Of a stretch of DNA of 13,262 bases, positions 6,499-12,358 are shown one piece after another. How positions within the stretch are numbered: position 1 is the first letter of the stretch; the number at the start of each line of letters is the position of its first letter. The notes beneath the pieces were generated by a model. The model was not told where the DNA came from. It did not search any database and saw nothing but the letters and a program-made list of their open reading frames with translations. Source of the stretch: an uncultured archaeon (GTDB taxonomy: Archaea; Asgardarchaeota; Lokiarchaeia; Sigyniarchaeales; SOKP01). The stretch covers positions 1 through 13,262 of the forward strand of contig CAYLZE010000132.1 in assembly GCA_964388035.1 (NCBI GenBank), given 5' to 3'. A program made the translations under genes and the position numbers.

Positions 6499-7848
6499 TT
6501 AAAAATCTGGTAATCTCTTAATTCTTGTCCATTCTTTATTCATCAAAAAATCAGACTCGTTTGAATCTTCATTTGAATAACTTAATAAGTCTACAATTAT
6601 GGTGGAAGGAGTAAAATACCGTGCTCCAAAACCTTTATCCTCTTGACAATGATAGGTTTCTCTAAATCCATTTCTCTTTATCATGTTTAGGGTTTTTTCA
6701 AGTAATTCTTGAGCAATATTGATAAATCCGTGCTTTAAAAGTCCTTTAATGATTAACCAATTAGTAATCATCCGCGATGAGTTTTTCCAAGAATCTTGAT
6801 TCGAAGAAATGGTACTTTTTTCATCCATTGAAATCTGAGGAACCGGATTCTTTGTCCAAAATTCTTTAGGATTTAATAAGTGGTCCTCCACTAAGCATGT
6901 AGCTTTATTCAATGGTAATCCGTCTAAAATTAGAGGGATTAATGAGCTTATGGTTTTAATTTTCTTCTTTGAGCAAGAAGGATCATGAATTCCTAGAAAA
7001 ATTTCAAGATCTGCATTCCAACATTTTTTTAACAGTGAATTTTCTATTTTTGTTGCTTTAAACAAACAATCTTGTTTTTCCATATCATTTTTTAACTCAT
7101 TGAAGAGAAATGCCAAATCCCGATACCCTTGAATAAAGAGACTATTGAATATTAAATCTTGATATAAAAATCCTTTATTCTTCCTAATCTCTGAAACATT
7201 CGAATTAGATTTCTCAACACAATCAAGTATTTGAATGTAACTTTCCGAGATTAGTTTAGTAGTACTTTGATCTTTAGTTCCTGAGTTAAAATATTCCTTG
7301 TAAATCATGGTGTCTTCGATTACATCTTCCCACGGATGAATTATATTTAAAAGATAATTTTCTTCTTTTGAAATAACACGAAAATTAGTTAGATAGTCGT
7401 AAAAGTTTTTGGTTTTCTGTATATTATCTTGCAAGAAGGTTCTCTCATAATTTTTATTATAAATAGCTTTCAATGCTTGAGCCAACAAGGGCATTATAGT
7501 CAAAGAACTGAAAGCTTGAAGCTCATACATGGTTTTAACTCGATTGGAGAGAAAAGGATAATTTCCGCTCCAAAAATTGATCCTCCTAATCATTCCCTCC
7601 TTAGTTTGTGTGAGAAATATTGATTCAAATTCTTTTTTAGCTAGTGCTAAATCGAAATGGCTATTAATTATTACATGAATGCATGAATCCTCCACGCGTT
7701 GAAATGGGTATATTCTGCGATTAGAGGAAGTATAAATGGTTGTTTTTGATAAGGTTTGATTTAATTTACACACTTTAAGATTAAATTCTAAGATATTCCT
7801 TGCTGCTTTTTCAAGCTTCAAAATTTGAGGATCGTTAGTTGAAATCAA
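6499..7848 (-). CDS. GH63/MGH1-like (alpha/alpha)6 glycoside hydrolase fold protein, active site apparently degenerate
   Basis: Motifs occur in family order but are eroded: YPFQRVEDS (cf. YP.QW.WDS), HPWEDVIED (cf. HPWESG.DNSP), LIPLIL, HLLNPKEFWTKNPVP, SWKNSSRMITNWLIIKGL (cf. YWRGP.W...NW), GFRETY...GFGARYF (cf. GF.EYY....G.G.GA..FSW). TTG start uncertain. Confidence 0.8.
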   Translation of the reverse strand: MISTNDPQILKLEKAARNILEFNLKVCKLNQTLSKTTIYTSSNRRIYPFQRVEDSCIHVIINSHFDLALAKKEFESIFLTQTKEGMIRRINFWSGNYPFLSNRVKTMYELQAFSSLTIMPLLAQALKAIYNKNYERTFLQDNIQKTKNFYDYLTNFRVISKEENYLLNIIHPWEDVIEDTMIYKEYFNSGTKDQSTTKLISESYIQILDCVEKSNSNVSEIRKNKGFLYQDLIFNSLFIQGYRDLAFLFNELKNDMEKQDCLFKATKIENSLLKKCWNADLEIFLGIHDPSCSKKKIKTISSLIPLILDGLPLNKATCLVEDHLLNPKEFWTKNPVPQISMDEKSTISSNQDSWKNSSRMITNWLIIKGLLKHGFINIAQELLEKTLNMIKRNGFRETYHCQEDKGFGARYFTPSTIIVDLLSYSNEDSNESDFLMNKEWTRIKRLPDF

Positions 7849-11194: not shown

Positions 11195-12358
11195 TCAAAC
11201 GTCTTTAGGAAGGTTATTTTTAGAATATTCTGCTTCATATCCGGGATTAATAAGCCAACCTTTTTGTAATAGATCTTTTGAATATAATATAGAAGCCCCA
11301 ATCCAACCCATATTGTCCCTTTCGTCTACAGCAAGGATTCGGATATTTTGACTTATTTTCTCGGGAAAATATTGCATTAATTGATTTTTAAGGCGTTCTT
11401 TTAAACCTGGAATTAAACTTCCCCCTCCGGTAAGAATAATATTAGACACTAATTCTTCCCAATTCTCCCGTTCCCAAACTTTCACGATATTTGCAATAAT
11501 TTCATCTAATCCGGCATAATTTACATGGAGGATATTAGGATAAAAAAGAGGTTCTGAGACGAGAAATCGTTCAGAATTCAGTTCTATATTACTCCCATCG
11601 GGTAGATTAACTACTTGCTTAAATTTAGTGGTTCCTTCCTTTATTTGCTTTATTTCTTTTTCAAAATTCAAAACACACAAGGAGCTTTTTTCTTTAATTT
11701 CTTTCGCAAGCCATTTATCAATGTAGGTATTCTGATTGGAGCTTTTTAAAATTAAGTTTAAATAAAATTCCGTGAGATCCTTTCCGGCGATGGGAAAAAT
11801 ATCTCGAGCCAATTCATTAGCAAATCCATGAACAGCAGAAATCACATAAGTATAGGATTCCCCTAAATTGATAACTATTCCTGTTCTTTTTTGTAATGTG
11901 GCAAAGATTGCTTGTTCTTCAGGTAAAAATAAAAGATATGGAAAATTGAACTCTTCAAAAAAAATCTTTCTTAATCGTTCTTTTTCTTGTTCGCTAACAT
12001 AAAAGGGATTAATCATTATGATGGGTTGTTTATATCTAAATTCGGGTGCGATTCCTAATTTATCGTAATGATGGAGAAAAAATTTCGCGAAAATATTATA
12101 ATTATTTTCTTTTTTAAATTCATGTAATTTTAAAACATGTTGATATTTCAAGGCATCATTTCCATAAAGATAATTAGTATCTTTTCCCTCAATAAATAAA
12201 TCTTCAAGTCCATCGATAACTTCTGTAAAAAATAAAAAATCTGTTTGATCTGTATAGATGCTGGGTATAATAATCTTCGGAGAATCATCTCCCGCCCATC
12301 CAAATCGAAAAGTGTTATTTCCTAAATTTACGATTAAAGCTCGCTCAAAATGAGACAT
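11195..12358 (-). CDS. Divergent actin-related protein (eukaryotic actin/Arp-type, Asgard actin paralogue)
   Basis: Colinear with actin throughout: FGWAGDDSPK..IPS, FEEFNFP, TGIV.NLG, AGKDLT, EIKEK, LPDG, ERF...EPLF.P, NIILTGGGS..PG..ERL, WIGASIL; 387 aa. Confidence 0.95.
   Translation of the reverse strand: MSHFERALIVNLGNNTFRFGWAGDDSPKIIIPSIYTDQTDFLFFTEVIDGLEDLFIEGKDTNYLYGNDALKYQHVLKLHEFKKENNYNIFAKFFLHHYDKLGIAPEFRYKQPIIMINPFYVSEQEKERLRKIFFEEFNFPYLLFLPEEQAIFATLQKRTGIVINLGESYTYVISAVHGFANELARDIFPIAGKDLTEFYLNLILKSSNQNTYIDKWLAKEIKEKSSLCVLNFEKEIKQIKEGTTKFKQVVNLPDGSNIELNSERFLVSEPLFYPNILHVNYAGLDEIIANIVKVWERENWEELVSNIILTGGGSLIPGLKERLKNQLMQYFPEKISQNIRILAVDERDNMGWIGASILYSKDLLQKGWLINPGYEAEYSKNNLPKDV

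Follow-up and report, generated by a model that had tools for sequence, protein, structure and literature searches.

A conserved Asgard actin-related protein family with a retained nucleotide pocket, replaced catalytic residues and a conserved four-gene cassette

The window analyzed here, a 13,262-bp stretch that is an entire contig from a 5.47-Mb assembly (~31% G+C), encodes an actin-related protein (Arp) belonging to a conserved Asgard family that appears, from its sequences, to be defined by an E137/N154/E157/Y161 nucleotide site and by loss of the actin sensor loop. We consider it fairly probable that this Arp is an ATP- or ADP-holding, poorly hydrolyzing, non-filament subunit that works with the partners encoded in its gene cassette. 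In the mechanism that we propose, the actin fold is kept, a working nucleotide pocket would be maintained by the glycines of the phosphate loops, by Arg or Lys in place of K18, and by the ribose and adenine contacts, and the chemistry of hydrolysis would be lost through replacement of the water-positioning Gln137 by Glu, replacement of the D154/H161 proton relay by Asn and Tyr, and deletion of the PIEHG sensor loop. In the lineage of the window protein (P0001), the metal-water ligand D11 is in addition replaced by Asn, as are S14 and G15. ATP (or ADP) would then be a stably bound cofactor, structural or acting as a switch, that is turned over very slowly or not at all, in a non-filament subunit joined to the 281-aa helical, 860-aa CHAT-like, and 181-aa proteins of the cassette. 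Since neither of the known catalytic sets is complete, slow or absent hydrolysis would be the likeliest outcome, and nucleotide binding, weak hydrolysis, and complex formation are what we infer for the Arp; the data themselves establish the gene, its fold, the substitutions and how they are conserved, and the synteny.

The Arp gene (11195..12358, minus strand) is an intact ORF of 387 aa with an ATG start; the plus-strand frame over the same interval contains stop codons throughout, and every large ORF of the window lies on the minus strand. The Pfam Actin family (PF00022) matches residues 6-375 with an E value of 2.2e-48 and 165 bits (cutoff 27), phmmer ranks eukaryotic actins, at ~150 bits, first by sequence among the solved structures, and the AlphaFold2 model and a fold search identify an actin fold with all four subdomains, in which the plug region has a length like that in actin. 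Among NCBIfam models, MamK, BeeR, syringactin, salactin, and FtsA match weakly and in part, far under their cutoffs. A pseudogene or a sequencing error is ruled out by the intact ORF and by the presence of 42 of the 42 invariant family columns, and the occurrence of N11 and N164 in many independent assemblies likewise leads us to reject sequencing error. The features discussed below are collected in Table 1.

Table 1. Features of the Arp and of its cassette in the window, with substitutions in actin numbering.
Feature	Position	Strand	Description
Upstream cassette gene, 281 aa	12412..13257	-	N-terminal half acidic and disordered; C-terminal 130 aa helical and conserved
Phosphate-1 loop	12314..12331	-	Residues 10-15, VNLGNN; D11N, N12L, S14N, G15N; G13 retained
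Enlarged subdomain-2 (D-loop) segment	12161..12253	-	Residues 36-66, acidic and aromatic; ~11 residues longer than in actin by alignment
Site of the lost nucleotide-sensor loop	12101..12124	-	Actin YPIEHGIV replaced by HEFK-KENN; 3 residues deleted, no H73 equivalent
E147-E148-Q149, start of hinge helix	11912..11920	-	E147 probably equivalent to actin Q137 and Q149 (11912-11914) to V139, by DSSP register and ungapped multiple alignment
Phosphate-2/catalytic loop	11846..11872	-	Residues 163-171, INLGESYTY; D154N, D157E, G158S, V159Y, H161Y; G156 retained
Adenosine motif	11417..11434	-	Residues 309-314, LTGGGS; equivalents of actin G301, G302, and T304
Downstream cassette gene, 860 aa	8567..11149	-	Helical region and weak CHAT-like match
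Fourth cassette gene, 181 aa	7966..8511	-	No family match in Pfam or NCBIfam

The phmmer alignment of the Arp to solved actins, the MAFFT L-INS-i alignment, and the hhalign alignment concur in pairing N11, N14, N15, and R18 with actin D11, S14, G15, and K18, and N164, E167, S168, and Y171 with D154, D157, G158, and H161. They thereby confirm D11N and D154N as they had been proposed in an earlier, sequence-only reading of this DNA, and the motifs quoted there (VNLGNN, INLGES, and TGGGS) stand as given, at residues 10-15, at residues 163-168, and within LTGGGS at residues 309-314, respectively. The codon of N11 is AAT, such that D11N needs a single G-to-A change. The actin catalytic set D11/Q137/D154/H161 is absent from the Arp, which instead has N11, N164, Y171, and E147 (or, according to the profile aligners, Q149). 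The MreB-type Glu at the Q137 position is present as E147 according to the DSSP register of the AlphaFold2 models and the multiple alignment, the profile aligners placing Q149 there, and the MreB-type T-X-[D/E] pair at the V159 and H161 positions is absent from the family, where residue 169 is N, Y, or H and residue 171 is Y, S, or T. Judged on sequence, then, neither the actin catalytic set nor the E...T-X-[D/E] motif of MreB is complete in the Arp family. All of the invariant pocket residues of the family are present in the Arp (G13, G166, G192, K222, G311, and S314), and the adenosine motif, which had been described as intact, is part of a scaffold for adenosine and the phosphate backbone that is both present and strongly constrained.

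Roles for the residues concerned are described elsewhere. In F-actin, the attacking water is positioned by Q137, and the proton passes to a bridging water that D154 and H161 bind; the actin Q137A/D154A/H161A triple mutant has no measurable ATPase activity (PMC9646518). Because Q137, D154, and H161 are all replaced in the Arp family, the hydrolysis chemistry of actin appears to have been lost. The MreB proteins need the E...T-X-[D/E] motif, in which the Glu (E140) corresponds to actin Q137 and the acidic residue to H161, and a natural MreB without the motif, MreB3 of Spiroplasma, has slow Pi release (PMC9597168).

Which residue takes the position of Q137 depends on the register of the strand and helix that precede the second phosphate loop. 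Both phmmer and a family-versus-actin hhalign comparison open a two-residue insertion in the preceding strand and offset it by a two-residue deletion in the helix, a gap pair that matches "QAI" of the Arp with "QAV" of actin and puts Q149 at the Q137 position. MAFFT L-INS-i with intermediate sequences places E147 at Q137 and Q149 at V139 without gaps, in a stretch bounded by the invariant P140 (actin P130) and G160 (actin G150). As a control for the register, the Lokiactin encoded by the same genome (P0121) was modeled by the same AlphaFold2 procedure (pLDDT 87), and from FN[F/V]P the two models agree at every DSSP position for 50 residues without any shift, following a common pattern of a strand of 6, a helix of 8, a loop of 5, and a strand of 6 residues. 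The first residue of the helix is E147 in the Arp model and Q144, the equivalent of actin Q137, in the Lokiactin model. The identical register does not support an insertion and a deletion that cancel each other inside a buried strand and helix, and E147 therefore probably occupies the Q137 position, a register reached indirectly, by comparing the DSSP assignments of two predicted structures. The substitution Q137E, previously offered as probable, is thus strengthened, with phmmer and hhalign dissenting. In this register, residue Q149 is conserved where actin has the hydrophobic V139.

A homologue search over 5.8 billion proteins found 283 relatives, and the residue counts given here use the best 120 of the 283, which are 53-72% identical to the Arp; where a source is named for any of the 120, it is a Loki-type (Promethearchaeota) or other Asgard-labeled MAG. 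With a family profile, a single copy is found in each of 23 genomes out of 25 from the same GTDB family and, at E <= 1e-60, none in 126 genomes spread over 26 further families of the phylum. When 1.84 billion representatives at 50% identity are searched, the family forms one full-length cluster, to which the combination of E137, Q139, and N154 is confined among the representatives listed. Across the 120 relatives, the Q137 position is E in 117 (with Q149 in 116), the D154 position is N in 108, D157 is E in 115, G158 is S in 98, H161 is Y in 92, and K18 is R in 102, and the D11 position is D in 106, N in 7, and E in 6. The glycines and the lysine of the pocket are retained almost without exception (G13, G192, and K222 in 120/120 and G166 in 119/120), as is the adenosine motif (G311 and S314 in 120/120 and G312 in 114/120).

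The rate at which each column changes separates the pocket from the catalytic positions. Counted as parsimony changes on the tree of the 120 sequences, where the median column has 10, the pocket is nearly frozen (in actin numbering, G13 0, G156 1, G182 0, K213 0, G301 0, G302 1, and the T304 equivalent 0), and the positions that are catalytic or linked to the metal in actin change at average to fast rates (D11 9, D154 9, H161 10, S14 17, G15 33, and V159 33). The pocket scaffold is constrained, and positions D11, D154, and H161 drift about as fast as an average column, which is the signature expected from selection for holding a nucleotide and not for hydrolyzing it by the actin route. Other positions of the Arp are constrained as well, namely E147 (3 changes), Q149 (1), E167 (3), and T170 (2).

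The substitutions had been presented as features of this one paralogue. They are real, as stated, although by the family alignments D154N, Q137E, and H161Y are hallmarks of the whole family, and D11N alone (with S14N) is lineage-specific, flipping back and forth at the tips of the tree. Seven independent protein clusters have residue N11, and a single one of them represents 59 member sequences. It is found in the small basal clade of the Arp (P0001, P0002, and P0004), where P0003, the close sister of P0004, has D, and additionally at four other tips beside sisters that bear D. The D11N change is a real, recurrent, and tolerated minority state of some lineages, and is neither an error nor restricted to one genome; confinement of the changes to a single genome is likewise contradicted by the family-wide counts for N164 and E147. 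The triple N11/N14/N15 is found in P0001 alone among the 120 relatives. The interpretation given in the sequence-only reading holds in outline once it is recast for a whole family; that reading passed over H161Y, the loss of the sensor loop, and the recurring cassette of four genes.

Outside the nucleotide site, the enlarged subdomain-2 segment, modeled at a pLDDT of ~58-62, contains residues D40, F43, S45, I48, G50, L51, and E52 that are invariant or nearly so across the family. The C-terminal helix and tail, which contribute to the barbed-end groove in actin, are missing or unrelated in the Arp. In subdomain 3, residues W295, R297, E298, N299, and W300 (11459-11476, minus strand; consensus WDRENW) are invariant.

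The Arp gene is the second of four co-directional genes, in the order 281 aa, Arp, 860 aa, and 181 aa, with gaps of 53 and 45 nt on its two sides. The same order is found around relatives that are 54-65% identical (L005-L010). An Arp of the sister clade A (31% identical; L011) has the same four-gene arrangement with homologues of all four genes, and an Arp of clade B (L012) precedes a homologous 833-aa protein; in both sister loci, the reading frames of the Arp and the large protein share 4 nt. Thus, in the window and in L005-L012, an Arp lies directly upstream of a homologous protein of ~830-870 aa. The 860-aa protein has 147 homologues at 40-59% identity, is homologous to the genes that follow the sister-clade Arps (E 5e-43 for L011 and 1e-17 for L012), and matches Pfam CHAT with an E value of 2e-4, which is under the cutoff; its Asn697, in the segment IHIIGNL, is invariant across 65 homologues. 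The 281-aa protein is without a match in Pfam and NCBIfam, and its C-terminal ~130 aa are 32% identical (E 1e-20) to the product of the gene upstream of the clade-A Arp; its acidic N-terminal half does not align with the counterpart in that locus. The 181-aa protein is 39% identical (E 4e-43) to its L011 equivalent. One genome of this GTDB family that is 99% complete has neither the Arp nor the large protein, and both are also lacking from two genomes of a second GTDB family of the same order. A complex prediction for the Arp with residues 248-860 of the 860-aa protein gave a score of 0.00, which speaks neither for nor against binding. The cassette proteins may be physical partners of the Arp, and conserved synteny is by itself no proof of binding. 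After the cassette, both in the window and in its nearest relatives (L005-L007), comes a gene for an MGH1-like glycoside hydrolase (6499-7848, minus strand). Relatives at a greater distance have a methyltransferase/Eco57I-like gene there instead, and the MGH1-like gene is thus probably outside the conserved core.

In a tree of the available representatives, midpoint-rooted and containing neither an outgroup nor named eukaryotic Arps, the Arp family and clades A and B form one clade apart from actin, Lokiactin, and other Arp-like representatives (FastTree SH-like support of 1.0 for the family and 1.0 for the family with A and B). The sister clades have A, H, S, P, N, Q, or E at position 137, D or S at 154, and R or S at 161, which suggests that the catalytic positions are free to vary across the cassette-linked group. 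Single-protein searches with a clade-A (P0136) and a clade-B (P0137) member at E <= 1e-70, run without a positive control, found no match in 151 sampled genomes of the phylum. The best phmmer matches outside the family are "actin-related" proteins of Anaeramoeba, which we rejected as kin because they fall outside the family in the tree; a common amino acid composition may explain their scores. In these proteins (P0128-P0130), which are 761-895 aa long, the actin domain is C-terminal and ~400 aa of extension precede it at the N-terminus. A protein named centractin belongs to the cluster of a representative that groups with the actins and not with the Arp family.

The same data have to be weighed against readings other than a nucleotide-holding subunit with slow turnover. 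The conserved E147, Q149, E167, and T170 (1-3 changes each) would fit a working Glu-based catalytic site too, and one alternative, which we think unlikely, is that the site is rewired and active, with Glu147 serving as the water-activating base as in MreB, ParM, and Hsp70 and offsetting the loss of D154 and H161, and with the ATPase timing the assembly or release of a complex. The near-fixation of E147, its modeled placement at the Q137 position, the equivalence of MreB E140 to Q137 (PMC9597168), and the conservation of E167 and T170 are all consistent with this, as is the net charge over positions 11, 137, and 154, which in most of the family would equal that of actin owing to the swap of Q137E for D154N. 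The earlier suggestion that the Glu compensates for lost charges fits as such a family-level swap (D11/E137/N154 in place of D11/Q137/D154), but it does not hold for P0001, which has lost D11 too and is one negative charge short, and position 137 of the cassette-linked sister clades is occupied by A, H, S, P, or N, which also counts against an active Glu-based site. Further points against such a site are the absence of the T-X-[D/E] half of the motif, residue 169 (N, Y, or H) being among the fastest columns and 171 mostly Tyr, and the drift of D11 and N164 at the average rate. A more elaborate form of this idea, which we regard as very doubtful, is that the charge-swapped site (Gln137 to Glu, Asp154 to Asn, and His161 to Tyr) hydrolyzes by a Glu-based route intermediate between the MreB/ParM-type and actin-type chemistries, acting as a slow timer in an Asgard complex centered on the CHAT-like protein, with the D11-to-N flips tuning its rate from lineage to lineage.

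It is also conceivable, though quite improbable in our estimation, that the Arp builds filaments as a distinct type of actin, with the cassette proteins as its regulators or adaptors, as in crenactin-arcadin or ParMRC loci. The presence of all four subdomains and of a plug region about as long as that of actin would allow this, and its neighbors are conserved, as are those of other prokaryotic cytomotive actins; moreover, the invariant residues on the subdomain-2 loop and the subdomain-3 helix could make homotypic filament contacts as easily as contacts with a partner. However, a longer acidic segment stands in place of the D-loop, the elements for the barbed-end groove are missing or unrelated, and the residues that couple polymerization to hydrolysis in actin are gone. 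In Ca. Lokiarchaeum ossiferum, the non-Lokiactin homologues, which are compared with the Arp here as a class, are transcribed several-fold below Lokiactin, to which the filaments are assigned (PMC9834061). Finally, the pocket of the N11/N14/N15 lineage might no longer bind Mg-nucleotide at all, making the protein a nucleotide-free structural pseudo-ATPase. Three polar substitutions in one phosphate loop, seen in P0001 alone of the 120 relatives, point in this direction, and D11A by itself weakens ATP binding by Arp3 15-fold and uncouples the conformational change from nucleotide binding (PMC2171590). Against this, the six invariant pocket residues are all present in P0001, Asn can still hydrogen-bond to metal-bound waters, and close relatives with D11 and with N11 are otherwise alike, such that we judge a nucleotide-free pocket extremely improbable and retain the nucleotide-holding, poorly hydrolyzing subunit as the preferred reading.

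Compared with Lokiactin and eukaryotic actin, the family differs in Q137E, D154N, D157E, G158S, H161Y, and K18R, the Arp has a deleted PIEHG loop, a longer and acidic D-loop, and a different C-terminus, and P0001 adds D11N, S14N, and G15N. The MreB/ParM-type bacterial actins have the Glu at the Q137 position in common with the Arp, but the T-X-[D/E] half of their motif is missing from the Arp, which in both sequence and fold resembles eukaryotic-type actin far more. Degenerate ATPase sites are familiar among the actin-related proteins of eukaryotes, where Arp4, Arp8, and Arp7/9 are nuclear Arps of this kind in the INO80 and SWI/SNF-type remodelers, and the Arp family is therefore not a new category. 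The eukaryotic nuclear Arps combine altered catalytic residues with a probable role as a stable complex subunit instead of a polymer, as we propose here by analogy only, and they differ in having an HSA-helix ATPase partner where the Arp has a CHAT-like protein and two small proteins. A further comparison is with the Asgard "ARPs", such as the three of Ca. L. ossiferum, which are likewise divergent paralogues beside a canonical Lokiactin, making four actin homologues in total (Rodrigues-Oliveira et al. 2022, PMC9834061), a likeness that we draw at the level of class. Spiroplasma MreB3 (PMC9597168), which naturally lacks the catalytic motif, provides a precedent for a protein that binds but barely hydrolyzes, though it is a bacterial MreB that still polymerizes and its kinship to the Arp is no closer than the superfamily.

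The literature searched contained nothing specific on the Arp family, its nucleotide-site signature, or its cassette, and we found no paper that assigns an activity, a partner, or a nucleotide behavior to Asgard actin-related proteins besides Lokiactin. One such family is now described precisely enough to be tested, with a conserved pocket, a replaced hydrolysis machinery, a probable Glu in place of Gln137, and three fixed neighbors. If the Arp is an ATP-bound structural subunit, the eukaryotic use of actin-fold proteins as non-polymerizing parts of complexes would already be present in archaea, and if instead the Glu sustains hydrolysis, the family would show how the catalytic chemistry of actin can be rebuilt.

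The genome encodes four actin-family genes, which are a canonical Lokiactin and three divergent paralogues that include the Arp. The Lokiactin (P0121, 413 aa; contig C5, L001:1474-2715) scores 423 bits to Pfam Actin and has D11, Q137, D154, and H161 all present; with a canonical Lokiactin encoded elsewhere in the genome and the Arp in a separate clade, the view that the Arp is distinct from Lokiactin is borne out. The Lokiactin has a C-terminal extension of ~45 residues past the actin domain, with a pLDDT below 50 in the model. The other two paralogues are P0122 (374 aa with a TTG start; contig C123, L002:1474-2598, minus strand), with Q137D, D154E, S14Q, and G15F, and P0123 (513 aa; contig C117, L003:925-2466, minus strand), with Q137T and D154E, such that all three of the non-Lokiactin actins of this genome have non-canonical catalytic residues that differ from one another. 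P0123 also contains an insert of ~150 aa close to the C-terminal portion of its actin domain, with four CxxC pairs that resemble two zinc-ribbon motifs.
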